From a virus (Duplodnaviria; Heunggongvirae; Uroviricota; Caudoviricetes), in the IMG/VR virus record IMGVR_UViG_2850796239_000003, positions 1 to 14,699 of that record: 14,699 nucleotides of DNA; one strand, given 5' to 3'. A model generated the notes under the pieces. The model saw only the letters and a program-made list of their open reading frames with translations. It did not search any database and was not told the origin of the DNA. This document shows, piece after piece, positions 1 to 14,699 of the stretch (position 1 is the stretch's first letter; every line of letters starts with the position of its first letter). The position numbers were made by a program, and so were the translations under genes.

Positions 1-201
1 TTACCCATTGGCGCGGCTTAAGAGCTTATTTTTGAATTCACAATGGTCACGATATAACCATCTTGCTCGCCCGTGGATAACTTTGGCTTTTGGCAGGTCG
101 CCGGACTTAATCCGGTCATAGATGAAGGTTTTACCAAAGCCAGTATCAGCCATGATGAATTTCAAATCAACCAGTGAATCAGGTTGTAGTTCGTGTTGCA
201 T
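1..201 (-). CDS. AlpA/TorI-family winged-helix prophage regulator, excisionase-like (66 aa)
   Basis: Complete ORF, ATG at 201-199 and stop at 3-1. GGAG lies 9 nt upstream of the ATG. The translation has the AlpA/Xis-type pattern (TGFGKTFIYDRIKSGDLP...GRARWL) and the 66-aa size typical of TorI-like recombination directionality factors. Family call is from memory, not a search. Confidence 0.7.
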   Translation of the reverse strand: MQHELQPDSLVDLKFIMADTGFGKTFIYDRIKSGDLPKAKVIHGRARWLYRDHCEFKNKLLSRANG

Positions 202-246
202 GAGTGCTATCTCCGAATATGGAATCGAACCTGCAAATCAGGTAAT

Positions 247-267
247 AAAAAAACCGCATTGATGCGG
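247..267 (-). terminator. Putative rho-independent terminator after the 346-561 ORF
   Basis: On the minus strand: stem CCGCA / TGCGG with loop TCAA, followed by TTTTTTTATT. Confidence 0.45.
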
Positions 268-345
268 CGATGGTAGGTCTGGATATCTTGATAAATGAAA
301 ATACCTCATCGAGTGTGAGGCGGTGTGATTTCTTTATTTACACTC

Positions 346-561
346 TTAATGTTTGTCAGTGAATGGTTTCCCCATCTCCAGTAATGCCTTACTCATCTCA
401 TTTCGTAACTCTATAGCCATCCTGACGGCTTCAACCTGTGCAGGATGTCGGTTAATTGCTGGAGAATATCGTCGGGAGCGAAGGATTGAGAAAACAAAGA
501 TAATGCAAGCAACTATCTGAATTGCATTGCATGTTATTGATACAATGTGAATTGCAGCCAT
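346..561 (-). CDS. Hypothetical small single-pass membrane protein (71 aa)
   Basis: ORF with a hydrophobic N-terminal ~28 residues (IHIVSITCNAIQIVACIIFVFSIL) followed by a basic RSRR and a charged C-terminal tail. Weak GGGG RBS. The start sits immediately after the upstream terminator U-tract, so expression is uncertain. Confidence 0.3.
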   Translation of the reverse strand: MAAIHIVSITCNAIQIVACIIFVFSILRSRRYSPAINRHPAQVEAVRMAIELRNEMSKALLEMGKPFTDKH

Positions 562-572
562 CTACTACCCCA

Positions 573-598
573 AATAAAAAAACCGCCATCAGGCGGCT
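573..598 (-). terminator. Putative rho-independent terminator after the zinc-ribbon gene
   Basis: On the minus strand: GCCGCC TGAT GGCGG(T) hairpin followed by TTTTTTTATTT. Confidence 0.55.
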
Positions 599-662
599 TG
601 GTGTTCTTTCAGTTCTTCAATTCGAATATTGGTTACATTGTTTTCATATATGAATAAATAAA

Positions 663-842
663 TTAGCTTTTTTCGTTGCCTTCGCGTTCTTTATTAATTT
701 TGACAAACTCGTTTTTACCAAGCTCTCCAAATGCGTCTTTAGAGTCGTTGTATCCGCAATCGCAGCACACATAATCACCAGACCATTCACGCATTGTTTT
801 TTCTTTTGCAATATTTCCAGAACCGCATTTTGGACAAGACAT
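663..842 (-). CDS. Standalone zinc-ribbon protein, YgiT/MqsA-N-terminal-like (59 aa)
   Basis: Start taken at the ATG at 842-840, which has GGAGG 7 nt upstream; the ORF-track start at 875 is a TTG with no RBS. Two Cys pairs, CPKCG and CCDCG, about 20 residues apart, then an acidic/lysine-rich tail. The resemblance to the MqsA zinc-binding domain (MKCPVC...YCVHC...ESDAF) is from memory. Confidence 0.55.
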   Translation of the reverse strand: MSCPKCGSGNIAKEKTMREWSGDYVCCDCGYNDSKDAFGELGKNEFVKINKEREGNEKS

Positions 843-979
843 ATCACTACCTCCAAAGCATGAGTGAGATGACAACGTAACATTGATTGGAGATTAACAA
901 TAGATTGCTGATGTAAAAGATATGTATAAGCTTCGCTTTCAAAGTGGAGGATCTGATAGCGGCATCTAGGCTGTGTCCC

Positions 980-1495
980 TTAATTACGTAAGCGTTGATA
1001 AAAGAGTCGGATGCAGCCCAGTTTCACCATCGCCAGGTAATTTCTCGCCGTTTTGTCGTAACGCGTGGCGATGCGGCGATATTCTTTCAGCCGCCCAAAG
1101 CACCGTTCAACGACATTACGATTGCGGTACGCATCACGATCAAGCTGTGCACGTCCATCCGATGCCATTTTCTCATTTGACTTTCGGGGGATTACTGCCT
1201 TTATACCGTTATTTTTCAGCTCGTTGCGCAATGCGCGCCCTGAATACGCTTTATCAGCCAGTACCGCATGTCCACGGCGTTTCATGCTGCCGTTCTGACG
1301 CTGAACGCCAATCCCGTCCAGAAGTCGTTGCGCGAACTGGCTTTCATGAGCTTGTCCGGGGCTTAGCACGATATTTAACGGGAGGCCACTTCCGTCTGTT
1401 GCCAGATGGATTTTGGTGCCAAAACCGCCGCGAGAGCGACCCAGCCCATTATCTCCGTCGATATCGGGATGTTTTTTTGAGCACCGGCGGCACAT
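980..1495 (-). CDS. IS5-family transposase orfB (DDE catalytic part, -1 frame relative to orfA)
   Basis: Contains GLGRSRGGFGTKIHLATDG, LADKAYSG and the Y-x2-R-x3-E-x6-K signature (DAYRNRNVVERCFGRLK). Overlaps orfA by about 120 nt across an A-run. Confidence 0.85.
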   Translation of the reverse strand: MCRRCSKKHPDIDGDNGLGRSRGGFGTKIHLATDGSGLPLNIVLSPGQAHESQFAQRLLDGIGVQRQNGSMKRRGHAVLADKAYSGRALRNELKNNGIKAVIPRKSNEKMASDGRAQLDRDAYRNRNVVERCFGRLKEYRRIATRYDKTARNYLAMVKLGCIRLFYQRLRN

Positions 1496-1824
1496 TTCAG
1501 CGCCCGGATATTACTGCCATCCAGCGCGGTGGCAGACCAGTCAATAAAGCCGTTTGCATCAAGTAGCGAAAGCAACCTGTTGAAAATAATATTAATCACG
1601 CCTGACTTTGACCATCGGTTAAAGCGGTTATAAACAGTTTTCCATGACCCATATCGTTCGGGTAAATCGCGCCATGGTGCACCGGAACATAACACCCAGA
1701 ACATGCCATTGATGATTTTACGGTGCTCAGCCCATGGGCGTCCGGCCCGTGGTGTGGCGGGTTCAGGAGGTAACAGGGGCTTGATGATGGTCCATGCCTC
1801 ATCGGGAAGGTCGTAGCGAGCCAT
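1375..1824 (-). CDS. IS5-family transposase orfA (149 aa, N-terminal DNA-binding part)
   Basis: MARYDLPDEAWTIIKPLLP...GRPWAEHRKIINGMFWVLCSGAPWRDLPERYGSWKTVYNRFNRW, the conserved N-terminal module of IS5/IS427-type transposases. Confidence 0.85.
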   Translation of the reverse strand: MARYDLPDEAWTIIKPLLPPEPATPRAGRPWAEHRKIINGMFWVLCSGAPWRDLPERYGSWKTVYNRFNRWSKSGVINIIFNRLLSLLDANGFIDWSATALDGSNIRALKCAAGAQKNIPISTEIMGWVALAAVLAPKSIWQQTEVASR

Positions 1825-1884
1825 AGTTCAATATGTTGTGTAAACAGACAGTTACTATAGCTCAGATGATTAAGGGACACAGCC

Positions 1885-2901
1885 TACATCACTGTTGTTG
1901 TTGAATATCAGCAACTGGAGGAAGCGATCAAGCTTAACCAACTGGAAGAAATTCTCGCGCCGGTTCGCCAGCGAATCGTTACCGACCTTGAAACAGAGCT
2001 TGCTCACTTCATGATGAATAACGGTGCGTTGTCACTTGGTAGCCCCAATACTCCAATCACCAAATGGTCTGATGTTGCGCAGACGGCATCTTTCCTGAAA
2101 GACCTCGGCGTTAATGAAGGTGAAAACTATGCTGTAATGGATCCATGGTCTGCACAGCGACTTGCTGATGCGCAGACTGGTTTGCACGCTTCAGATCAAT
2201 TGGTTCGTACTGCATGGGAGAATGCACAGATCCCAACCAATTTTGGCGGCATTCGCGCACTGATGTCTAATGGGCTTGCCTCTCGTACGCAGGGGGCATT
2301 TGGCGGAACACTGACAGTCAAAACACAGCCAACTGTTACCTATAACGCAGTTAAAGACTCATACCAGTTCACTGTAACATTGACCGGAGCGACAGCCAGC
2401 GTTACAGGTTTTCTGAAAGCTGGTGATCAGGTTAAATTCACCAATACCTACTGGCTGCAACAGCAGACCAAACAGGCGTTGTATAACGGAGCCACACCAA
2501 TTAGCTTCACTGCAACGGTTACTGCTGATGCTAATTCAGACAGCAGTGGCAATGTGACGGTTACGCTTTCTGGTGTTCCGATTTATGACACTACAAACCC
2601 GCAGTACAACTCTGTAAGTCGTCAGGTAGCGGCAAACGATGCCGTATCTGTAGTAGGCACTGCTAGCCAGACAATGAAGCCAAACCTGTTCTATAACAAG
2701 TTCTTCTGTGGACTTGGCTCTATCCCACTGCCGAAACTGCACAGTATTGATTCTGCTGTTGCAACATATGAAGGTTTCTCCATCCGCGTACATAAATACG
2801 CAGATGGCGATGCCAACGTGCAAAAAATGCGCTTTGACTTACTGCCTGCATATGTGTGCTTTAACCCTCACATGGGCGGTCAGTTCTTCGGTAATCCGTA
2901 A
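1885..2901 (+). pseudogene. Major capsid (coat) protein of a P22-like phage, 5'-truncated at the IS boundary (about 338 C-terminal codons)
   Basis: The reading frame is open from the first base after IS copy 1 to TAA at 2899-2901, with no plausible start or RBS at the 5' end. It lies immediately upstream of clear gp4 and gp10 homologs, the coat position in P22-like late operons, and shows loose local similarity to P22 coat. No N-terminal coat sequence exists left of the IS. Confidence 0.65.
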
Positions 2902-2905
2902 TAAC

Positions 2906-2930
2906 AAGGGGCTTACGCCCCTTTTATGTT
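2906..2930 (+). terminator. Rho-independent terminator/attenuator just downstream of the coat gene
   Basis: AAGGGGC TTAC GCCCCTT hairpin followed by TTATGTTTT on the plus strand, 5 nt after the coat stop. Confidence 0.55.
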
Positions 2931-2943
2931 TTAAGGAAACAAT

Positions 2944-3129
2944 ATGGATCGCATGAGTGTATTCCTTGCCGCAGATAACGAATCCGGGCATGTACAGGCC
3001 GTTATCGCAGAAAAAGACTTCCAGTTTTTCGAAAAGTTGGGCTTTGTTGCCTCAGTTGATGAATTGAAACCGACCAGTAAGCGAGGTCGTAAGGCGGCAG
3101 ACAATGGCAACAGTACTGACAAAGGGTGA
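2944..3129 (+). CDS. Hypothetical small protein between coat and gp4 (61 aa)
   Basis: ATG preceded by AAGGAAA. Position matches the small ORF found between coat and the gp4 homolog in Sf6-like genomes. Overlaps the gp4-like start by 26 nt. Confidence 0.45.
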   Translation: MDRMSVFLAADNESGHVQAVIAEKDFQFFEKLGFVASVDELKPTSKRGRKAADNGNSTDKG

Positions 3130-3586
3130 GATCGTCCTTTTTGCGCTTCGTAAGTTTGCTATTGCTTCTAATGCATCGCTGACTGATGTTGAGCCGCAAT
3201 CAATTGAAGATGGTGTAAATGATCTGGAAGATATGATGTCCGAGTGGATGATTAACCCCGGCGACATTGGTTACGCTTTCGCAACTGGAGATGAGCAGCC
3301 ATTACCAGATGATGAGTCAGGTCTTCCAAGAAAATACAAACACGCAGTAGGCTATCAGTTATTGCTGAGAATGCTATCTGATTACAGCCTTGAGCCAACT
3401 CCGCAAGTTCTCAGTAACGCCCAACGCTCATATGATGCCTTGATGACCGACACTCTGGTTGTTCCTTCAATGCGACGACGTGGAGATTTTCCTGTAGGAC
3501 AGGGTAATAAATATGACGTGTTCACATCTGACCGATATTATCCAGGCGATCTCCCTCTGATTGATGGCGATATCCCAAATTCATAG
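3104..3586 (+). CDS. Head-to-tail adaptor / packaged-DNA stabilisation protein, P22 gp4-like (160 aa)
   Basis: Translation aligns along its N-terminal half with recalled P22 gp4 (window ...[34 protein letters not shown] versus P22 ...[34 protein letters not shown]). Correct size and position. Confidence 0.88.
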   Translation: [160 protein letters not shown]

Positions 3587-3594
3587 GTGAATAA

Positions 3595-5013
3595 ATGCCT
3601 ATTCAGCAACTTCCGCTTATGAAAGGTGTCGGCAAAGACTTTCGAAACGCCGACTATATCGACTATCTGCCAGTGAATATGCTGGCTACACCCAAAGAAA
3701 TCCTGAACAGCAGCGGATATCTTCGCTCATTCCCTGGCATTGCCAAACGCTCTGATGTGAACGGTGTATCTCGCGGCGTCGAGTACAACATGGCGCAGAA
3801 TGCTGTTTATCGTGTGTGTGGTGGCAAGCTGTACAAAGGAGAAAGTGAAGTCGGTGACGTCGCCGGAAGTGGTCGCGTATCAATGGCGCATGGTCGTACA
3901 TCTCAGGCGATAGGTGTTAATGGTCAACTGGTCGAGTATCGCTATGATGGCACGATTAAAACCGTCTCAAACTGGCCTACAGATAGCGGATTCACTCAGT
4001 ATGAGCTAGGTTCGGTTCGTGACATTACGCGCTTACGTGGGCGTTATGCGTGGTCAAAAGACGGTACTGATTCATGGTTTATCACTGACCTTGAAGACGA
4101 ATCACATCCTGACCGATACAGCGCACAATATCGCGCAGAATCTCAGCCTGATGGCATCATCGGCATAGGGACATGGCGAGACTTCATCGTCTGCTTTGGT
4201 TCATCGACGATTGAATATTTCTCCCTGACTGGTGCAACCACCGTTGGTGCTGCTTTGTATGTCGCCCAGCCATCATTGATGGTGCAAAAAGGCATCGCCG
4301 GGACTTACTGCAAAACGCCGTTTGCTGATTCCTATGCTTTCATCAGCAACCCGGCAACGGGTGCGCCGTCTGTGTACATCATCGGTTCCGGTCAGGTATC
4401 ACCAATCGCCAGCGCGAGCATTGAGAAAATACTTCGCTCCTACACTGCTGATGAACTGGCTGATGGTGTGATGGAGTCTCTGCGATTTGATGCGCATGAG
4501 TTGCTGATTATCCATCTTCCGCGTCACGTCCTTGTGTACGATGCATCTTCAAGCGCCAATGGTCCGCAATGGTGTGTGCTGAAAACAGGCCTGTATGACG
4601 ATGTGTACCGCGCTATCGACTTCATTTACGAAGGCAATCAGATAACGTGCGGCGATAAGCTGGAATCCGTGACCGGGAAACTGCAGTTCGATATCAGCAG
4701 CCAGTACGACAAGCAGCAGGAACACCTGCTGTTTACTCCGTTGTTCAAAGCGGATAACGCCAGATGCTTCGATCTGGAGGTGGAATCATCCACTGGCGTA
4801 GCTCAGTACGCCGACCGCCTGTTCCTCTCTGCAACCACTGACGGCATCAATTACGGACGTGAGCAGATGATTGAGCAGAATGAACCGTTCGTTTACGACA
4901 AACGCGTTTTGTGGAAGCGAGTAGGGCGCATCAGGAAAAATGTCGGCTTCAAATTGCGCATTATCACGAAGTCACCTGTCACTCTGTCTGGCACTCAGAT
5001 AAGGATTGAGTAA
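3595..5013 (+). CDS. Packaged-DNA stabilisation / tail hub protein, P22 gp10-like (472 aa)
   Basis: N-terminus [49 protein letters not shown] matches recalled P22 gp10. Same length as P22 gp10. AGGTG RBS. Stop overlaps the next start (TAATG). Confidence 0.88.
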
Positions 5014-5861
5014 TGGCGGATTCGAATCTCAATACACCTGTTATTGTTCAGGCGACGCGGCTCGATACATCAATCCTTCCACGCAATATCTTCTCGCAGT
5101 CGTATCTGCTTTACGTTATCGCACAGGGTACTGATGTTGGTAACGTGGTGAATAAGGCCAACGAGTCCGGACAGGGCGCTTATGACGCGCAGGTAAGGAA
5201 CGATGAGCAGGATGTGATTCTGGTTGATCACGAAATTCGACTGGCATCAGCTGAAGCGAAGATACAGGACCACGAAACAAGGATCACTAACGCAGAAGCA
5301 GCGATAGTCGGCCTTGATTCGCGATTAACGACAGCAGAAAACGATATTGATTATCTGACTGATGAAGTTGTCGCCATTCAAAACACGCTTTCAGACCATG
5401 AAACGCGCATCGATGCTCTGGAGTATGCCACTACTCGCAAGAAGTCAGAGGTTGTTTACTCTGGCGTATCTGTAACCATCCCGACAGCGCCGACTAACCT
5501 TGTTAGCCTGCTGAAAACGCTCACGCCGTCATCCGGCTCGTTGGCACCATTCTTCGACACCGTTAACAACAAGATGGTTGTGTTCAACGAGAACAAAACC
5601 TTGTTCTTCAAGTTGTCGATTGTCGGGACGTGGCCCAGTGGAACCGCAAACAGGTCAATGCAGCTAACCTTTTCCGGCTCTGTTCCTGACACGTTGGTCA
5701 GCAGTCGTAATGCGGCGACAACAACCGATAACATCTTGTTAGCTACGTTCTTCAGCGTGGATAAAGACGGCTTTCTTGTCACAAATGGCAGCACGTTAAC
5801 CATTCAGTCAAATGGTGCGGCGTTTACTGCCACAACCATCAAGATAATCGCGGAGCAGTGA
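5013..5861 (+). CDS. Tail needle, P22 gp26-like N-terminus with C-terminal knob domain (282 aa)
   Basis: N-terminal ~60 residues ([43 protein letters not shown]...[16 protein letters not shown]) match recalled P22 gp26. A heptad-rich coiled-coil stretch is followed by a C-terminal domain of ~140 residues that P22 gp26 lacks, as in Sf6-type needles. Confidence 0.88.
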
Positions 5862-6316
5862 TGATTCAGTTCAAACCAACGCGAAACATCGACCTGATCG
5901 AAGCAGTAGGAAATCACCCTGACATTATCGCCGGGAGCAACAACGGCGATGGATACGACTACAAGCCTGAATGCCGTTACTTTGAGGTTAACGTGCATGG
6001 GCAGTTCGGCGGCATTGTTTACTATCAGGAGATTCAGCCGCTGACATTCGATTGCCACGCCATGTACCTGCCAGAGATTCGCGGCTTCAGCAAGGAAATC
6101 GGGCTGGCGTTCTGGCGATACATTCTGACTAACACCACCGTTCAGTGTGTCACATCGTTCGCTGCACGCAAATTCCGCCACGGGCAGATGTACTGCGCAA
6201 TGATTGGCCTTAAGCGTGTCGGAACCATCAAGAAATACTTTAAAGGCGTGGATGACGTGACGTTTTACAGCGCCACACGCGAAGAACTAATCGACTTCCT
6301 GAATCACGGGAGATAG
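5861..6316 (+). CDS. P22 gp14-like virion assembly protein (151 aa), by synteny
   Basis: ATG at 5861 overlaps the needle stop (TGATG) with GGAG 5 nt upstream; the ORF-track GTG at 5858 is less likely. Size and position match gene 14 between the needle and ejection-protein genes. Confidence 0.65.
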   Translation: MIQFKPTRNIDLIEAVGNHPDIIAGSNNGDGYDYKPECRYFEVNVHGQFGGIVYYQEIQPLTFDCHAMYLPEIRGFSKEIGLAFWRYILTNTTVQCVTSFAARKFRHGQMYCAMIGLKRVGTIKKYFKGVDDVTFYSATREELIDFLNHGR

Positions 6317-6318
6317 CT

Positions 6319-6856
6319 ATGTTATATGCATTTAAGCTGGGCAGAAAACTGCGCGGCGAGGAACCTTATTGCCCTGAAAAAGGCGGGAAAGGTGGCTCCG
6401 ATAAAAGCGCAAAGTATGCAGCAGAAGCTCAGAAGTATGCCGCAGACCTGCAAAATCAGCAGTGGCAGACGATCATGAAAAACCTTGCTCCGTTCACGCC
6501 TCTTGCGGAGCAGTATGTTAACCAGCTTCAGAACCTTTCCAGTTTAGAAGGTCAGGGGCAGGCACTTAATCAGTATTACAACTCTCAGCAGTATAAAGAC
6601 CTTGCAGGTCAGGCTCGTTACCAGAGTCTTGCTGCTGCGGAGGCGACGGGTGGACTTGGTTCGACAGCCACAAGCAATCAACTGGCTACGATCGCGCCTA
6701 CTCTCGGTCAGTCTTGGTTATCAAACCAGATGAGCAATTACAACAATCTGGCAAACGTTGGGCTTGGTGCACTTCAAGGTCAGGCAAACGCCGGGCAGAC
6801 GTACGCCAACAACATGAGCAGCATTGCACAGCAAAGCGCAGCTCTTGCCGCTGCTA
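6319..6856 (+). pseudogene. Ejection protein, P22 gp7-like, 5' fragment interrupted by IS copy 2
   Basis: ORF starts at ATG 6319 and runs into the IS, where the frame terminates artificially (...ARLCPLII*). Q/N/A-rich ejection-protein-like composition. Position matches gene 7. Confidence 0.7.
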
Positions 6857-6872
6857 GGCTGTGTCCCTTAAT
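6857..6872. repeat. Left terminal inverted repeat of IS copy 2
   Basis: GGCTGTGTCCCTTAAT, a perfect reverse complement of 7757-7772. Confidence 0.85.
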
Positions 6873-6916
6873 CATCTGAGCTATAGTAACTGTCTGTTTA
6901 CACAACATATTGAACT

Positions 6917-7366
6917 ATGGCTCGCTACGACCTTCCCGATGAGGCATGGACCATCATCAAGCCCCTGTTACCTCCTGAACCCGCCACACCACGGGCCGGA
7001 CGCCCATGGGCTGAGCACCGTAAAATCATCAATGGCATGTTCTGGGTGTTATGTTCCGGTGCACCATGGCGCGATTTACCCGAACGATATGGGTCATGGA
7101 AAACTGTTTATAACCGCTTTAACCGATGGTCAAAGTCAGGCGTGATTAATATTATTTTCAACAGGTTGCTTTCGCTACTTGATGCAAACGGCTTTATTGA
7201 CTGGTCTGCCACCGCGCTGGATGGCAGTAATATCCGGGCGCTGAAATGTGCCGCCGGTGCTCAAAAAAACATCCCGATATCGACGGAGATAATGGGCTGG
7301 GTCGCTCTCGCGGCGGTTTTGGCACCAAAATCCATCTGGCAACAGACGGAAGTGGCCTCCCGTTAA
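6917..7366 (+). CDS. IS5-family transposase orfA (149 aa)
   Basis: Identical translation to copy 1 orfA. Confidence 0.85.
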   Translation: MARYDLPDEAWTIIKPLLPPEPATPRAGRPWAEHRKIINGMFWVLCSGAPWRDLPERYGSWKTVYNRFNRWSKSGVINIIFNRLLSLLDANGFIDWSATALDGSNIRALKCAAGAQKNIPISTEIMGWVALAAVLAPKSIWQQTEVASR

Positions 7367-7761
7367 ATATCGTGCTAAGCCCCGGACAAGCTCATGAAAG
7401 CCAGTTCGCGCAACGACTTCTGGACGGGATTGGCGTTCAGCGTCAGAACGGCAGCATGAAACGCCGTGGACATGCGGTACTGGCTGATAAAGCGTATTCA
7501 GGGTGCGCATTGCGCAACGAGCTGAAAAATAACGGTATAAAGGCAGTAATCCCCCGAAAGTCAAATGAGAAAATGGCATCGGATGGACGTGCACAGCTTG
7601 ATCGTGATGCGTACTGCAATCGTAATGTCGTTGAACGGTGCTTTGGGCGGCTGAAAGAATATCGCCGCATCGCCACGCGTTACGACAAAACGGCGAGAAA
7701 TTACCTGGCGATGGTGAAACTGGGCTGCATCCGACTCTTTTATCAACGCTTACGTAATTAA
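7246..7761 (+). CDS. IS5-family transposase orfB (DDE domain, -1 frame)
   Basis: As copy 1 orfB, with two Arg to Cys differences (TGC at 7504-7506 and 7615-7617 where copy 1 has CGC). Confidence 0.85.
   Translation: MCRRCSKKHPDIDGDNGLGRSRGGFGTKIHLATDGSGLPLNIVLSPGQAHESQFAQRLLDGIGVQRQNGSMKRRGHAVLADKAYSGCALRNELKNNGIKAVIPRKSNEKMASDGRAQLDRDAYCNRNVVERCFGRLKEYRRIATRYDKTARNYLAMVKLGCIRLFYQRLRN
7264..7270 (+). other. Candidate -1 programmed frameshift heptamer A AAA AAC joining orfA to orfB
   Basis: In the orfA frame the codons are caA AAA AAc. A -1 slip enters the orfB frame (..SKKHPDID..). The same motif occurs in copy 1 at 1471-1477 as a reverse complement. Confidence 0.5.
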
Positions 7762-7772
7762 GGGACACAGCC
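7757..7772. repeat. Right terminal inverted repeat of IS copy 2
   Basis: ATTAAGGGACACAGCC, a perfect reverse complement of 6857-6872. Confidence 0.85.
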
Positions 7773-7774
7773 TA

Positions 7775-7926
7775 ATGCCAATAAACCATCAAGTCTTCAG
7801 ACTGCAATTAGTGGCGGAACGTCTGGTGCGATTGCCGGTGCAGGTCTTGCCAGCCTTTTGGGAACATCAACACCTTGGGGCGCTGGCATTGGTGCTGGTA
7901 TCGGATTGCTTGGTTCGTTGTTTTAA
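7775..7926 (+). pseudogene. Ejection protein, P22 gp7-like, 3' fragment (about 50 codons)
   Basis: Removing the IS and one TA copy restores one continuous frame: ...AAN ANKPSSLQTAISGGTSGAIAGAGLASLLGTSTPWGAGIGAGIGLLGSLF, stop at 7924-7926. The rebuilt ORF is about 229 codons, the size I recall for P22 gp7. Confidence 0.65.
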
Positions 7927-7935
7927 GGGGTAATC

Positions 7936-9402
7936 ATGGCTACTTGGCAAGGATCAAATGGCGGATTGTTGGCTGGTATCGGCGGCGTCAACTCAAACGC
8001 TCCGAGCGTAAATGACATCGGCAATACGCTTCAGCTTATCAGGCAGAACAATGATATTGAGCGTTCAGGCGCTAACAATGTTGGGCTGACTGCTTTGCAA
8101 GGCCTTTCAGGTATTGCGGGGGTGTTTCAGCAGGAAAAGCAGGCTCAGCGGCAGAAAGAATTTCAGCAGGCATACGCTAATGCTTATGCGTCTGGTGATC
8201 GCGGTGCTTTGCGTCAGTTGGCTACTCAATATCCAGACCAGATTGAATCCGTTCGTAAAGGCATGGGATTCATTGATGAAGATCAGCGTAATTCTATCGG
8301 CACCTTAGCGGCTGGCGCACGCCTTGCGTCATCGTCTCCAGAAGCAATGCAATCATGGCTGCAAAACAACGCCAAGGAACTGACTCGCGTCGGTGTTGAC
8401 CCTAACAGCGTTGCTCAGATGTATCAGCAGAACCCTTCAGGATTTGGTGAGTTTGTTGATCACCTTGGAATGGCTGCTCTTGGTCCGATTGATTACTTCA
8501 ATGTTCAGGACAAGATGGCTGGTCGTGAGATTGACCGAGGCAGACTGGCAGAGACAATCCGCAGCAATCAGGCTGGAGAAGCACTTCAGGCGAGAGGGCA
8601 GGATATTAGCCGAGCAAATGCGTTAACGTCAGCATATGCACCAACAGCCGCAATGCAGAATTACAATCAGTACGCGCAAATGTTAAAGGCGGATCCAGAT
8701 GGTGCAGCGGCATTTGCGGCAGCGGCGGGAATTAATCCCAATGCTAAGAAATTACTTAAGGTTGAAACCAATCCTGATGGCTCGGTAACTAAGTATTACA
8801 CCGATGGCAGCGAGGAAGCCGGAAAACTAAACCAACCTATATCTGGTGATGGCATTAAACCAATTAGCTTGCCACAAGCGCAAAGCATCATAGATAAGGC
8901 TAATGAGGGTTCCAAGAAGGCGGCAGGATTTGCTTTGCGATTAAAAGATTCAATGGACTCAATGAATCAGCTTAGTAAAAGCATTGACCCTAAGCGAGTT
9001 GCATTAATAAATCGCTCTCTTGGTGATGGGACTATTGCAAATTTAAGCCTATCACCAGCGGAGCAGCAATATATGGTAAATGCGAGAGACGCCTTGTATG
9101 CAATTTTGCGCCCAGAAACAGGTGCAGCAATTACTCTGCCAGAGATGCAGGAGTATTCCAAAATGTACCTGCCTCAGCCCGGTGATTCCAAGGCTGCTAC
9201 TGAAACAAAAATGCGAAAAATGCAGGGCCAATATAACTCATTACGTGGTCAGTCTGGTCGCGTTTATGATGCTTTGGTGGTTTCAAGTGCTGCAAATAGT
9301 CAACAACAGAGCAATAGCCAACAACCGGCAAATACCCAACAGCAGCAGAGTCAATCCGGATCATATACCTCAAAATCAGGCATTCAATTTACGGTGGAAT
9401 GA
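7936..9402 (+). CDS. Ejection (internal virion) protein, P22 gp20-like (488 aa), by synteny and size
   Basis: ATG at 7936 preceded by AAGGGG. Gly/Ala/Gln-rich. Q/S-rich low-complexity C-terminal tail. Stop overlaps the next start (ATGA). Confidence 0.7.
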
Positions 9403-11246
9403 TGAAAGTAACTGCAAACGGTAAGACATTTACCTTCCCTGATGGTACGAGCATGGAAGATATTGGCACCGCCATTGATGAGTATTTTGCTGGTCAGGCT
9501 GTTCAGCAACAAACAGTTAATCAGGCCAATAATGAACCAGCACGTGAAGAACCATCATTGATGCAACAAGCTGGCGATTGGCTCACAGGCGGGCAAAGTG
9601 CAGGGCAAATTGCAGAGCAGGCTGGTCGTGGTCTGGTAAACATACCATTTGACGTATTGCAGGGCGGCGCAAGTCTGATTAATGCAATCAGTCAGGGGCT
9701 TGGTGGACCCAAGGTTTTGGATGATGTTTATCGTCCAGTAGACAGACCGACAGACACCTACGCGCAAGCCGGTGAAACAATTGGTGGGTATTTAGTTCCA
9801 GGAGTTGGAACGGCAGGAAGCATGGCTATTGGATCACTGGCAGAGGCCGCAAATCAGAAAGGCGATTTCGCACAAAATGCAGCTAAAAATGCCGGAGTTA
9901 ACCTTGCCGCTCAGGGTGTTCTTTCCGCAGCAGCAAAGGGAATAGGGCGTGGAATAACGGCTATAAAAGGTGATATTGCGCCAGAAGTGGCGAAGAAAAT
10001 TGCCACATCAGAATCGATGGGCGTGACACCAATGACATCTGATGTTATCCCGCCGAAAAATGCTTTCACTCGCGGCCTTACTCAGGATGCCGAGGGGGCT
10101 TTGCTCGGGACAGGCTCAAAGCGAGCGGAGCAATATGCAACGCGTAGTAAGCTGGTAAGTAATTATTTTGACCGTTTTGGTGAGTACAACCCTGATGATG
10201 TGGTGAAATCTCTGACCACCACGTTAAGGGGGCGGAAGGATGCCGCTGGCGCTGTTATCAATGACGTCACCAATAAAATGGGTAATGCCGCAGTTGATAC
10301 CACAAATACCATGAATGCTCTGAATACAGCGATCGCAAGACAGGAACGGCTTGGGACGTCTGCCAATCAAAGCCTGCTTACATCCTTGCGTAACCTACGT
10401 GAAGAATTAGCAAACCCTGCAACTGATTTGGATGTTACGTTTGATCTCTTGCGTCAGCACAGAACAGCATTTAGATCTAATGTTCAGGGAGATGCTATGG
10501 TCTTCCCCAACCAGGCAAAAGCAGCTACCAATATGGTAGAGAATGCAATGTCAAAAGACCTTCGTAACGCAGTTGCTAAAAACCTCGGTGCATCAGACGC
10601 AGCAAAATACCTTAAAGCAAATTCCGATTATGCAAACGTTTATAATAAGGTGCTTAATAAAAACATTGCTAACAAGCTCAACAAGGCAAGCAGTGAAGCC
10701 AGTCCTGAACTTATAAATACCGTTGTATTAAGCAGAAAACCATCTGACGTGAAACGAATCTGGAGCGCACTGGATGATAAGGGGAAAGATGCTATGCGTG
10801 CAGCTTACGTCAGCAAAATAGCGGAAAAGGCCGGGGACTCTCCAGCCAAGTTCATCACTGAAGTTAATAAGCTGAAATCTCAGTCAGGCGGTGAAATTTA
10901 CAACACTATTTTTTCTGGAAAGCACATGAAAGAGCTTGATGCTCTTCATGAAGTTCTACAGCAAACAGCAAGGTCAGACACCGCAAATGTAGTAACTCAG
11001 ACGGGGCAATCGCAAGCCAACAGGATAAGGACGATTGGCGCAACTGCGACCCTTGGCGTATCAATGGGGCTTGAGGCTGGTTTTGGTGCAATGATGCGCT
11101 TGTATGAGTCCAAAGCAGCAAGGAATGCTCTCTTACGTCTGGCAAACACTAAAACTGGAACGCCAGCTTATGAAAGAGCGCTAAATAATGCTGCAAATGC
11201 GATACGCCCTATACTTTCAAGCCAAATTACAGCAGAACAGCAATAA
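9399..11246 (+). CDS. Ejection (internal virion) protein, P22 gp16-like (615 aa), by synteny and size
   Basis: Last gene of the plus-strand late block. The length is close to the ~609 aa I recall for P22 gp16. N-terminus [16 protein letters not shown]. Confidence 0.7.
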
Positions 11247-11260
11247 AAGATAAGATATAA

Positions 11261-11554
11261 CTACCTGATATTACTGCTACTGTTGCATGTTACCGTGTTT
11301 CCAAATCCTGAATTGCAGTTTGTATATGTGTCAACGCGTGTTGGGTAAGGTTGAGTTATAACAGGCTGGCGCGCTTTTTGCTCGATCGCTTGCATTGTGT
11401 TTACAGCCTGGTAATTCAATAAAGCCTGCTGGAATGCTTGGCTTTGTGCTATTTGTTGGGCTTGTTCTTGGCTTTGTAATTGAACATAAAGATTCTGAAG
11501 CTCAAGTCTTGCCTTCATCGACACCTTGCCCGAGCATCTTTGCAGCAAGGACAT
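11261..11554 (-). CDS. Hypothetical Q-rich protein (97 aa; possibly the frameshifted 3' part of the lipoprotein gene)
   Basis: ORF in a different frame, overlapping the lipoprotein ORF by 53 nt. No good RBS at the first ATG; an internal ATG at 11518 has AAGGTG only 3 nt upstream. Gln-rich helical segment and Cys/Asn-rich C-terminus. Confidence 0.3.
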   Translation of the reverse strand: MSLLQRCSGKVSMKARLELQNLYVQLQSQEQAQQIAQSQAFQQALLNYQAVNTMQAIEQKARQPVITQPYPTRVDTYTNCNSGFGNTVTCNSSSNIR

Positions 11555-11726
11555 ACAGCTTAGGTGTTGGTGCTGATGCCATGCGTGAGTCGTTCTTCAC
11601 ACTGGCATCAAGGCAATTAGCCATATCGCTAAGCTTTTGATAGCGTTGTTCGCAACTTGCTTGATAGTCACTTACTTTTGCGCATCCAACCAGCAGAAGC
11701 GGGATAATTAACAGTGATTTTTTCAT
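11502..11726 (-). CDS. Small lipoprotein (74 aa) at the sieA-equivalent position
   Basis: Signal peptide with lipobox MKKSLLIIPLLLVGC and Cys at +1. AGGAG upstream of the ATG at 11726. Lies between gp16-like and mnt, where P22 carries sieA. Confidence 0.55.
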   Translation of the reverse strand: MKKSLLIIPLLLVGCAKVSDYQASCEQRYQKLSDMANCLDASVKNDSRMASAPTPKLYVLAAKMLGQGVDEGKT

Positions 11727-11796
11727 ATGGTTAACTCTCCTTAGTTTTTCACAGGATATCATGAAGGCAATGCCATTTTAGCCGGAAACTAGATTT

Positions 11797-12063
11797 CTAT
11801 GTTTCCTTTTTATTATTGCTATACATGGTCTTAAGCGTTTCAAAAACCATTTTCTTAACCATATCAGATTGTTGTTCTGCCATACGCTCTGCATCGTCAA
11901 TGTAAACTGATGCAGAGCTTTGTTTATCCAATGATTCCTCAATCGCTGCAATTATCTCTGAGTTCAGCGATCTGTTATTCATCTTCGCACGCTGTTTAAT
12001 TTTCGCGTGGAGTTCATGCGGAAGTATCAAGTGAAACTGCGCCTCGTCGTATTTGCTGTACAT
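11797..12063 (-). CDS. mnt: Mnt-like ribbon-helix-helix repressor (immI region), 88 aa
   Basis: Translation aligns with recalled P22 Mnt (window NNRSLNSEII...DDAERMAEQQSDMVKKMVFETLKTMY versus P22 NGRSMNSELL...NDAERLADEQSELVKKMVFDTLKDLY). Start at ATG 12063 is preferred; the alternative ATG at 12096 would give 99 aa. Confidence 0.8.
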   Translation of the reverse strand: MYSKYDEAQFHLILPHELHAKIKQRAKMNNRSLNSEIIAAIEESLDKQSSASVYIDDAERMAEQQSDMVKKMVFETLKTMYSNNKKET

Positions 12064-12134
12064 CCTTGATGCCTCACCAGTTGGGTGGAATGGCATCGTA
12101 ACCTACTGGATAAATACTCAATAGTACCATTTCG

Positions 12135-12139
12135 GTATG
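12135..12139. repeat. IS2 target-site duplication (GTATG), left copy
   Basis: The same 5-mer occurs at 13471-13475, directly abutting both IS2 termini. Confidence 0.85.
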
Positions 12140-12150
12140 TGGATTTGCCC

Positions 12151-13056
12151 CTATATTTCCAGACATCTGTTATCACTTAACCCATTACAAGCCCGCTGCC
12201 GCAGATATTCCCGTGGCGAGCGATAACCCAGCGCACTATGCGGATGCCATTCGTTATAATGCTCGAACGCCTCTGCAAGGTTCTTTGCTGCCGTTAACCC
12301 GTCTGGTTTGGGCATGATACTGATGTAGTCACGCTTTATCGTTTTCACGAAGCTCTCTGCTATTCCGTTACTCTCCGGACTCCGCACCGCCGTGTTCTTC
12401 GGTTCAAGTCCCAACATCCGGGCGAACTGGCGTGTTTCATTAGCCCGGTAGCATGAACCATTATCCGTCAGCCACTCCACTGGAGACGACGGAAGATCGT
12501 TGCCGAAGCGGCGTTCCACCGCTCCCAGCATGACGTCCTGTACTGTTTCACTGTTGAAGCCGCCGGTAGTCACCGCCCAGTGCAGTGCCTCACGATCACA
12601 GCAGTCCAGCGCGAACGTGACACGCAGTCTCTCTCCGTTATCACAGCAGAACTCGAACCCGTCAGAGCACCATCGCTGATTGCTTTCTTTCACGGCCACT
12701 CTGCCTGTATGTGCCCGTTTCGATGGCGGTACAGCAGGTTTTCGCTCAAGCAACAGCGCATTCTGGCGCATGATCCGGTAAACACGTTTGGCATTGATCG
12801 CAGGCATACCATCAAGTTCTGCCTGTCTGCGAAGCAGCGCCCATACCCGACGATAACCATACGTGGGCAGCTCTCCGATAACATGGTGTATACGGAGAAG
12901 CACATCCGTATCATCAGTGTGACGACTGCGGCGGCCATCCATCCAGTCATCGGTTCGTCTGAGAATGACGTGCAACTGCGCACGCGACACCCGGAGACAA
13001 CGGCTGACTAAGCTTACTCCCCATCCCCGGGCAATAAGGGCGCGTGCGCTATCCAC
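12151..13056 (-). CDS. insD: IS2 transposase OrfB (InsD), 301 aa
   Basis: Translation [28 protein letters not shown]... with an IS3-family DDE integrase core. Overlaps insC in the -1 frame. Confidence 0.9.
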
Positions 13057-13379
13057 TTTTTTGCCCGTCCATATTCAACGGCTTCTTTGAGGAGTTCATT
13101 TTCCATCGTTTTCTTGCCGAGCAGGCGCTGGAGTTCTTTAATCTGCTTCATGGCGGCAGCAAGTTCAGAGGCAGGAACAACCTGTTCTCCGGCGGCCACA
13201 GCAGTAAGACTTCCTTCCTGGTATTGCTTACGCCAGAGAAATAACTGGCTGGCTGCTACACCATGTTGCCGGGCAACGAGGGAGACCGTCATCCCCGGTT
13301 CAAAGCTCTGCTGAACAATTGCGATCTTTTCCTGTGTGGTACGCCGTCTGCGTTTCTCCGGCCCTAAGACATCAATCAT
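13014..13379 (-). CDS. insC: IS2 transposase OrfA (InsC), 121 aa
   Basis: [41 protein letters not shown]..., a helix-turn-helix protein. Start taken at the internal ATG at 13379 rather than the 136-aa ORF-track start. Confidence 0.9.
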
Positions 13380-13470
13380 CTGTACTCCAATGACTAGTCT
13401 AAAAACTAGTATTAAGACTATCACTTATTTAAGTGATACTGGTTGTCTGGAGATTCAGGGGGCCAGTCTA

Positions 13471-13475
13471 GTATG
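13471..13475. repeat. IS2 target-site duplication (GTATG), right copy
   Basis: Identical to 12135-12139. Confidence 0.85.
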
Positions 13476-13520
13476 CAATCACATCATGGTTGCATCATAT
13501 CATTCGTCTGGAGCAATGAA

Positions 13521-14676
13521 ATGTCAGATATCACCGCAAATGTTGTGGTAAGCATGCCTTCGCAACTCTTCACTATGGCTCGTTCTTTTAAAGCGGTTGC
13601 CAATGGCAAAATTTATATCGGTAAAATTGACACGGATCCGGTAAATCCTGAAAACCAGATTCAGGTTTATTTAGAGAACGAAGACGGCTCTTACGTTCCT
13701 GTTTCACAACCAATCATCATTAACGCTGCTGGTTACCCTGTATATAACGGACAGATTGCCAAATTCGTTACCGTGCAAGGCCATTCTATGGCTGTTTATG
13801 ATGCGTACGGTGCGCAGCAGTTTTATTTTCCGAATGTGCTGAAGTACGACCCGGATCAGCTTGAGAAAAGATTGTCGTTAAACACGGGAGCTTCCCTGAT
13901 TGGTACATATTCAGGAGCATCGATTCAGTCGGAGATTGACTGTATTAATGAAAGCATTGAAATTATCAATAATGACGAACTTCCAAATCTATCGCTAGGG
14001 GTGGCATCATCTATAAAAACATCGGTCCAAATAATTGATGAAATTAAAGATCCATCTATTTCTTATGATGCATTTGGTAACTCCGTGTTCTACAATGGCC
14101 GCAATTTATTTTGCTTCAGGAGATCACCTGAGCATGTTGATACTTATACAGGCATGCACAGTGTGTGCATAGCAGAAATACTCAACAATGGAGCTTGTAA
14201 AATAATATGGGAATATACTGATAATACTGGCAATGCACCTAAAGATCCTACATTATCAGTCAGTAACCCAGGTAATACACTAATTATTTCTTTTCAGATT
14301 CATAATGTTTCATCTGATACATATACTTCTGGTATTATTGGATATCCTGATTTGTCAAATACTGGTAAGTTTTTATCAAGTTCTGAACTTACCACGGATC
14401 ATAACGTTTTTTTATGGGGTAATGTACTGCAAACTCCATCTGGAAATTTTATAACATCCAGATATAAAATTGATGGCACTGGTGTAGAGATAATTTCTTC
14501 ATCTGATACAAATTTAAACGAAAATACAACATGGTCTATAGTTAGTACACTTTCTGTTGGTTCGTTCCAGACAAGAACATCAGTTAATGAATGCAGTCTT
14601 TCATATTATAGAAATCAACTAGTTGCAATAGTCAGAACTCAGTCAGGCTCTTCTTTGGGTGGTTTTGGATATGCTA
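13521..14676 (+). pseudogene. Tailspike: P22 gp9-type head-binding N-terminal domain fused to a divergent AT-rich receptor-binding domain, 3'-truncated by IS copy 3
   Basis: ATG at 13521 with GGAG 7 nt upstream. The first ~110 residues ([50 protein letters not shown]...[12 protein letters not shown]...NVLKYDPDQ) match the recalled P22 tailspike head-binding domain; the rest is unrelated and visibly AT-rich. The frame runs into the IS at 14677, leaving about 385 codons. Confidence 0.85.
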
Positions 14677-14699
14677 GGCTGTGTCCCTTAATCATCTGA
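14677..14699 (+). mobile_element. IS5-family IS (same element), copy 3, left end only (cut by the window edge)
   Basis: GGCTGTGTCCCTTAATCATCTGA is identical to the first 23 nt of copy 2 and is preceded by TA at 14675-14676. Confidence 0.8.

Follow-up and report, generated by a model that had tools for sequence, protein, structure and literature searches.

Upon insertion, the insertion sequence (IS) IS5 duplicates 4 bp of its target, CTAA/YTAR. Members of the IS427 group of the IS5 family, such as IS1248 and ISPpa2, have two overlapping open reading frames (ORFs), a frameshift motif, and a 2-bp direct repeat (PMC3281130). Shigella genomes contain many ISs and pseudogenes, together with IS-mediated deletions and rearrangements, and their IS load consists mostly of IS1, IS2, IS4, IS600, and IS911 (PMC7373316). 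Here, we analyze the 916-bp element ISSfl7 in a stretch of 14,699 nucleotides (hereafter the window; positions 1 to 14,699 of the IMG/VR virus record IMGVR_UViG_2850796239_000003), which is the larger part of a 19.4-kb P22/Sf6-like prophage remnant located at tRNA-Arg (CCT), between dsdC and yfdC. The remnant resembles Shigella phage Sf6 and the P22-like prophage of Escherichia coli O104:H4, with which it shares the gene order coat-gp4-gp10-gp26-gp14-gp7-gp20-gp16-(mnt)-tailspike-acyltransferase-int at 95-98% identity. In contrast to both, it lacks approximately 25 kb at this locus, and its tailspike has a receptor-binding module shared with phages ZQ1 and phiA41.

This remnant was most probably dismantled by ISSfl7 (a probability of roughly 0.88), through one plain insertion and two events that are now visible as deletion junctions. 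The original prediction, made from the sequence alone, had proposed that each of three copies interrupts a virion gene, namely the coat gene, the gp7-like ejection protein gene, and the tailspike gene. This is true for copy 2 only; in intact relatives, the two flanks of copy 1 lie apart from each other, and so do those of copy 3.

Identity of the repeated element

An exact-sequence look-up of the truncated gp7 product, whose reading frame continues into the IS, led to the 5.16-Mb chromosome CP026875.1 (GCA_002950355.1), which matches the window exactly (record L005, offset 3682). The same locus is carried by AERN01000049 (GCA_000193915.2), an assembly listed as that of Shigella boydii ATCC 9905 (PMC6397287), and the NCBI title of a protein of the locus is 'Phage DNA transfer protein [Shigella boydii ATCC 9905]'. 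Based on this identical locus and protein, the host chromosome can be assigned to an S. boydii ATCC 9905-type strain.

A repeat search revealed a 920-nt inverted repeat, whose arms (967-1886 and 6855-7774) correspond to a 916-bp element with a TA on each side. Copy 1, which has the consensus sequence, is located at 969-1884 on the minus strand, and copy 2 at 6857-7772 on the plus strand. The window closes with 23 nt (14677-14699, plus strand) that equal the left end of copy 2, are directly preceded by TA, and represent the beginning of copy 3. In CP026875.1, copy 3 is complete and comprises 915 bp (window-equivalent positions 14677-15591); it is one C short in a C5 run and is otherwise identical in sequence to copy 1. 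Owing to the loss of this C, OrfB is shortened to 135 aa. The element ends in perfect inverted repeats of 16 bp (GGCTGTGTCCCTTAAT). Base-by-base comparison of copies 1 and 2 showed two mismatches, at positions 648 and 759 of the element, where copies 1 and 3 share the common sequence and copy 2 differs by private C>T changes, each of which replaces Arg by Cys. The exact look-up found this OrfB variant of copy 2 only in CP026875.1 and in the ATCC 9905 assembly. The alignment of the copies to one another, which had been recommended with the original prediction, confirms that they are one and the same element, with the coordinates, the 16-bp terminal repeats, and the bordering TA all as first described.

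The element is 99.1-99.8% identical over 916 bp to copies found in Shigella virulence plasmids and in a few Escherichia coli. The labels on these copies are 'IS5-like element ISSfl7 family transposase' and, in pCP301, 'ISSfl1 ORF1/ORF2'. From the PGAP labels on these near-identical records, we identify it as the catalogued ISSfl7. The ISSfl7/'ISSfl1' of S. flexneri 301 pCP301 has the same two ORFs, the same ends, and the same host group, and is at least 99% identical over 916 bp. Compared with ISSfl7, the only differences in the window copies are the two Arg>Cys substitutions of copy 2 and the 1-bp deletion of copy 3, and this lineage carries unusually many copies.

Copy 2 contains orfA (6917-7366) and orfB (7246-7761), the latter in the -1 frame of the former. 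Both products match the IS5-family profile NF033580 of NCBIfam above the cut-off of 110 bits, OrfA with 132.7 bits (profile positions 2-112) and OrfB with 173.5 bits (positions 112-257), so the two ORFs abut within a single profile. The transposase also matches Pfam DDE_Tnp_1. The overlap between orfA and orfB contains CAA AAA AAC, with the slippery heptamer A_AAA_AAC at 7264-7270, within and just after an A7 run (7263-7269). A conceptual -1 fusion of OrfA and OrfB is free of stop codons, comprises 281 aa, and contains the motifs ADKAY and Y-x2-R-x3-E-x6-K. In 'E. coli' FDAARGOS_943, the homologue is annotated by PGAP with a 'programmed frameshift'. The transposase is thus predicted to be a 281-aa DDE enzyme, which would be produced by -1 frameshifting at A_AAA_AAC.

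The assignment to the IS5 family in the original prediction holds: it agrees with the scores of both ORFs, with the terminal inverted repeats, and with the ISSfl7/ISSfl1 annotations. Within this family, the architecture of ISSfl7 suggests that it belongs to the IS427 group, with which it shares its size (approximately 0.8-0.9 kb, the range used for assignment being approximately 0.8-1.0 kb), short terminal inverted repeats, a pair of ORFs that overlap and contain a -1 frameshift motif, and a target duplication of 2 bp. ISSfl7 shares with IS5 its YTAR target class and its DDE/YREK-type transposase family. Unlike IS5, which measures approximately 1.2 kb, has a single transposase ORF, and duplicates 4 bp, ISSfl7 duplicates the central TA only.

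Insertion and deletion junctions

The gp7-like ejection protein gene is divided by copy 2 into an N-terminal part (6319-6856, plus strand; Pfam P22_gp7), which runs up to the target TA (6855-6856), and a C-terminal remainder (7773-7933, plus strand). In the uninterrupted genes of Sf6 and of the O104:H4 prophage, the site reads GCTGC-TA-ATGCC, whereas in the window the IS lies between two TAs (6855-6856 and 7773-7774), and the C-terminal remainder is contiguous with the reference right after a single TA. As judged from this comparison, copy 2 is a simple insertion with duplication of TA, and the only simple ISSfl7 insertion among the three copies.

The junctions of copy 1 are of a different nature. 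On its right side, alignment to Sf6 and to the O104:H4 prophage shows that the coat gene (1885-2901, plus strand; Pfam P22_CoatProtein) starts at nt 255, such that the 3' four-fifths are present without the first 254 nt (approximately 85 codons). The left side, where no coat 5' sequence is found, consists of a torI/xis-like gene (1-201), an Eag-like small early gene (663-842; gene call at 4345-4524 of L005), and the final 28 nt or so of an ead/Ea22-like early-left gene (939-968), all on the minus strand. The latter ends in the TA abutting copy 1. Positions 1-966 are collinear with the torI-eag-ea22 region of ETEC1739, from which the torI and Eag annotations derive, and reach 28 nt into coding sequence (CDS) QDW95_RS06820. 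The torI-like gene, at the left prophage end next to dsdC, also matches gene 18 of Sf6, a TorI-type response regulator inhibitor gene that is located on the other side of the Sf6 attachment site.

The two flanks of copy 1 are not adjacent in any of the intact relatives compared. On the Sf6 map, the Ea22-side point and nt 255 of the coat gene are approximately 25 kb apart, and the interval comprises early, immunity, replication, lysis, terminase, portal, and scaffold genes. Judging from this map, copy 1 marks approximately 25 kb missing at this locus, and the end of the Ea22-like gene is the left edge of the gap. A 28-nt match extending past copy 1 in FDAARGOS_943 was considered as a second coat-side junction and was rejected, as the locus is ynaI-ynaJ and the match is due to chance.

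The tailspike gene retains codons 1-385 (13521-14676, plus strand; Pfam Head_binding), which encode the head-binding domain and the start of the receptor-binding domain and end at the TA abutting copy 3. The intact homologue P0001 comprises 664 aa and is 91% identical, and many relatives of 664 aa are found in E. coli and E. albertii. In the DNA of P0001 (record L011), the left flank of copy 3 ends at the TA at 4155-4156 (CTAA) and the right flank resumes from the TA at 4592-4593 (CTAG), with 98.7-99.2% nucleotide identity over the flanks (98.7% up to 4156). By this comparison, 435 bp (145 codons) of the 664-aa tailspike are missing at copy 3. Phage homologues align to both tailspike parts, with approximately 150 residues in between. 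When the IS and one TA are removed, a stop codon is encountered 9 codons on, and a 132-codon open frame then follows in another frame. A native tailspike of 392 aa, ending 9 codons past the insertion, is ruled out by the in-frame 132-aa C-terminal part of the homologues and by their length of 664 aa.

TA borders all three copies, and copy 2 is truly a simple insertion, as would be expected if three independent simple insertions had split the coat, gp7-like, and tailspike genes with both halves of each gene as flanks. Nevertheless, TA on both sides of a copy is no proof of a single event, because every insertion occurs at a TA. Since the left flank of copy 1 is Ea22/eag/torI DNA instead of the coat 5' end, and since 435 bp of the intact gene separate the flanks of copy 3, which are not in frame with each other upon removal of the IS and one TA, we consider three simple insertions to be very improbable.

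At first sight, the end of the window, 23 nt into a repeat, resembles a contig break, which would be in line with repeats pasted by the assembler at collapsed or mis-joined positions. However, the window starts at the stop codon of torI and ends at the TGA within copy 3 that closes the truncated tailspike ORF; because its limits coincide with these two codons, it was cut at gene boundaries and not at a contig end, and CP026875.1 continues through the full copy. Moreover, the copies differ by two single-nucleotide changes and a 1-bp indel, and the coat-IS and gp7-IS junctions recur in four further assemblies, including AERN01000049, QWSH01000203, and Logan contigs (SRR4787083), so that the same junctions are present in a complete genome, in a draft genome, and in short-read contigs of other samples. 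The QWSH01000203 and SRR4787083 contigs start and stop in IS ends, and their coat and gp7 junctions match those of the window. The chance of an assembly artefact is in our view negligible.

The inverted copies 1 and 2 bracket a 4970-bp block of virion genes (1885-6856), which could be viewed as a composite transposon. This block is collinear with the neighboring phage genes, is found at this locus only, and shows no sign of movement. Short-read assemblies of other isolates (L007 and L008) yield the 4970-bp block as a contig bounded by IS ends.

Origin of the deletions

Copies 1 and 3 are most probably the remains of IS-associated deletions, of approximately 25 kb between the Ea22-like gene and the coat gene, and of 435 bp in the tailspike gene, respectively. 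Two routes could lead to such a situation. In the first, a resident copy would transpose intramolecularly to a nearby YTAR site, deleting the DNA in between and leaving one TA-flanked copy. In the second, homologous recombination would take place between two ISSfl7 copies in the same orientation. We infer the mechanism of the deletions, as well as the order of the events, from the following observations.

Recombination between independently inserted copies in the same orientation (in the Ea22-like and coat genes, and at sites A and B of the tailspike gene) could account for both deletions, and we regard it as a serious possibility, somewhat short of even odds. Hybrid flank pairs across genomes indicate that ISSfl7 copies do recombine. 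In L023 and L038, a left flank from a lambdoid prophage is found with the right flank of tailspike site B, and the same left flank is found with another right flank in L042; L040 and L048 also have a common left flank with differing right flanks. The L023 junction, in which the site-B right junction is joined to a left flank from a lambdoid prophage, is that of ATCC 9905. In addition, all four deletion end points are acceptable or half-acceptable YTAR sites. Against this, recombination at the tailspike needs two insertions within 435 bp and a recombination event, whereas a single transposition would suffice, and both parental insertions were found together in none of the genomes compared. The first route is also supported by IS1248, an element of the IS427 group that forms cointegrates (PMC3281130), which is the chemistry yielding adjacent deletions. 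For the 435-bp loss, we lean towards intramolecular transposition, because one event is needed instead of three, but this preference is slight and hardly exceeds an even chance.

It is also conceivable, although rather improbable, that the approximately 25 kb at copy 1 were relocated by an inversion or a translocation between ISSfl7 copies, with the other half now elsewhere in the chromosome. IS-mediated rearrangements are indeed evident between CP026875.1 and ATCC 9905 (L006 and L023). Yet the flanks of copy 1 keep the relative orientation of an intact prophage, as a plain deletion predicts, and the reciprocal junction, with the coat 5' end beside the IS, is absent among the flanks sampled, which for ATCC 9905 comprise only 10 further copies.

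In the ATCC 9905 draft, an RHS gene follows IS2 in place of the tailspike gene (L006, 17150-17719), and in L023 an ISSfl7 copy connects the tailspike 3' end with a lambdoid prophage (DUF1367/Rem). This arrangement represents either a further IS-mediated rearrangement in ATCC 9905 or a mis-join in the draft.

Dismantling by one insertion and two deletions remains our preferred explanation, and four points weigh against it. The sequence is equally compatible with intramolecular transposition and with recombination between two copies. At the junction, CA takes the place of TA in the nearest uninterrupted Ea22 reference, and we infer the TA to be a synonymous variant of the target. For the coat site, CTAC (GTAG on the other strand), the match to YTAR is limited to one side. 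Finally, the approximately 25 kb may have moved elsewhere via recombination between IS copies, their absence having been scored at this locus only.

Target preference

In the original prediction, the shared GCTA-GGCTG junction of copies 2 and 3 was taken as a hint of a target preference beyond TA, and a tabulation of flanks was recommended. Both copies do read ...GCTA-GGCTG, and the C is that of YTAR. The G is coincidental, as A is the most common base at position -2 (15/29) and G is not favored; the tabulation yielded a YTAR rule from the pooled unique flanks and no preference for GCTA.

A pyrimidine is present at position -1 in 27/29 left flanks of the pooled set and a purine at position +1 in 21/21 right flanks, TA being always present; each of the 21 fully flanked copies is bordered by TA on either side. 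The individual sources agree with one another: the 10 further copies of ATCC 9905 all read Y-TA-IS-TA-R, a pyrimidine precedes TA in 11 of the 12 left junctions of Brenneria, and every fully flanked copy in the IMG/VR proviruses conforms. Simple insertions are in YTAR in 10/10 cases, compared with 19% of the TA contexts in the surrounding DNA (P ~7e-8). CTAG, the rarest context here with 0.7% of the TA contexts, accounts for 3 of these 10 insertions. In the window, the sites are CTAA in the gp7-like gene, CTAA and CTAG in the tailspike gene, C-TA-(G) in the Ea22-like gene, and CTAC in the coat gene, which is a half match. A wider palindromic target was sought in the flanks, where only a weak A at -2 and a weak T at +2 were observed. 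The target rule of ISSfl7 is YTAR, of which only the central TA is duplicated.

The prophage remnant

The interval from dsdC to tRNA-Arg measures 19.4 kb in total, of which 4.08 kb are IS, whereas the Sf6 genome measures 39 kb. The remnant is bordered on the left by dsdA-dsdX-dsdC, with dsd-like genes directly upstream in L005, and ends on the right with the acyltransferase and integrase genes, followed by tRNA-Arg(CCT), yfdC, and mlaA. The late-gene order and the proteins are conserved, as in P22-like (Lederbergvirus-type) phages. The set of particle genes is incomplete, with no terminase, portal, scaffold, full coat, or full tailspike gene between dsdC and tRNA-Arg. The original prediction that this prophage cannot form particles is right in that the prophage is defective; the three insertions are not the main cause, which is the locus-wide absence of terminase, portal, scaffold, lysis, replication, and immunity genes.

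Between the coat and gp7-like genes, a gene-6-like ORF and the gp4, gp10, gp26 (needle), and gp14 homologues, i.e. head-completion and tail genes, are intact (2944-6316, plus strand). This region is 95% identical to Sf6 at the nucleotide level and matches Pfam P22_Tail-4, Phage_stabilise, Phage_tail_NK, and DUF2824. The gp20-like and gp16-like ejection protein genes (7936-11246, plus strand; Pfam Inj_translocase and Phage_P22_gp16) are also intact and 98.3% identical to the O104:H4 prophage. The domain calls for the coat, gp7, and tailspike products are precomputed Pfam matches; an NCBIfam search of these three fragments gave no match.

Downstream of the gp16-like gene, a lipoprotein gene (11261-11762, minus strand) is frameshifted and split into two ORFs by a 20-bp deletion at 11507, which is the single gap relative to CDS CEQ27_RS08400 of the O104:H4 prophage. 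This decay is independent of any IS. It is followed by an Arc/Mnt-family repressor gene (11797-12063, minus strand; Pfam Arc and Repressor_Mnt; 15479-15745 in L005).

IS2 (12140-13470, minus strand) is the fourth IS within the 14.7 kb, in addition to the three ISSfl7 copies, as had been recognized from the start. It measures 1331 bp, contains orfA and orfB with HTH_Tnp_1 and rve domains, as expected for this IS3-family element, is annotated as IS2 in matching E. coli records, and is a simple insertion that duplicated the 5 bp GTATG (12135-12139 and 13471-13475). Its site is the 121-bp intergenic region between mnt and the tailspike gene, such that no coding sequence is interrupted. IS2 or an element of the IS3 family is also located just upstream of the tailspike gene in several P22-like prophages of E. 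coli, at positions that differ from that in the window.

The receptor-binding part of the tailspike (13860-14676; 19276-19677 in L005) gave no megablast-level match in 5,426 complete E. coli genomes. At the protein level, its identity is 47-52% with a tail fibre of phage vB_EcoM-ZQ1 (Ackermannviridae) and 32-43% with a virion protein of Pectobacterium phage phiA41. These similarities point to a receptor-binding module common to several phage families.

In the early-left region, near-identical AATAAAAAAACCGC...GCGG motifs are located at 244-268 and 573-597, after small genes. Read on the minus strand, they resemble terminators with a stem-loop and a T-run.

Just right of the window (8503-11443 of L036), an Acyl_transf_3 gene of the O-antigen acetylase type (367 aa; compare oac of Sf6) is followed by the integrase gene. 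These two genes, beside tRNA-Arg(CCT), are complete ORFs, in contrast to the decaying virion genes. A complete serotype-relevant acyltransferase and an integrase fit the usual retention of useful prophage cargo.

Distribution and significance

The view that this genome is IS-expanded is justified by the host lineage, which is IS-rich: in S. boydii ATCC 9905, ISSfl7 occupies no fewer than 12 distinct sites. In FDAARGOS_943 (NZ_CP065615.1), ISSfl7 is present at 32 chromosomal and 4 plasmid places, and most plasmid records contain 2-5 copies. The single 19-kb stretch of FDAARGOS_943 that was inspected also contains ISEc60, other IS4-family copies, and pseudogenes. This strain looks like a member of an IS-expanded lineage of the Shigella or enteroinvasive E. 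coli (EIEC) type.

When the species representatives of GTDB were scanned for the IS left end, Brenneria alone was found, and no Shigella or E. coli genome. In Brenneria sp. L3-3Z and B. alni (L024-L035), a relative with identical first 30 nt and 82.7% overall identity is located at many contig ends. A relative of ISSfl7 is multi-copy in these plant-associated Pectobacteriaceae.

Both the element and the process are already known, and the decay of this prophage is an instance of ordinary IS-driven decay in Shigella. A separate, undescribed burst of ISSfl7 may be imagined in the lineage of ATCC 9905 and in FDAARGOS_943, on the premise that the Shigella virulence plasmid usually carries ISSfl7 in low copy number. 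In such a burst, the use of YTAR and CTAG would steer the element into prophages, with disproportionate erosion by adjacent deletions, but we consider this speculative and unlikely. What differs from the surveyed picture of Shigella (PMC7373316) is that a minor element, ISSfl7, causes most of the damage at this locus.

The main value of this analysis lies in the corrected annotation of the locus, which is a 19-kb remnant and not a full prophage with three insertions. Two of the three TA-flanked copies mark deletions, and for an IS that always inserts at TA, such flanks do not prove a simple insertion. The YTAR rule with duplication of TA is a statistically solid descriptor of ISSfl7 and is useful for IS-mapping tools. 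The high copy number of ISSfl7 in one lineage of S. boydii is a minor addition to the view that five common ISs dominate the decay of Shigella genomes.

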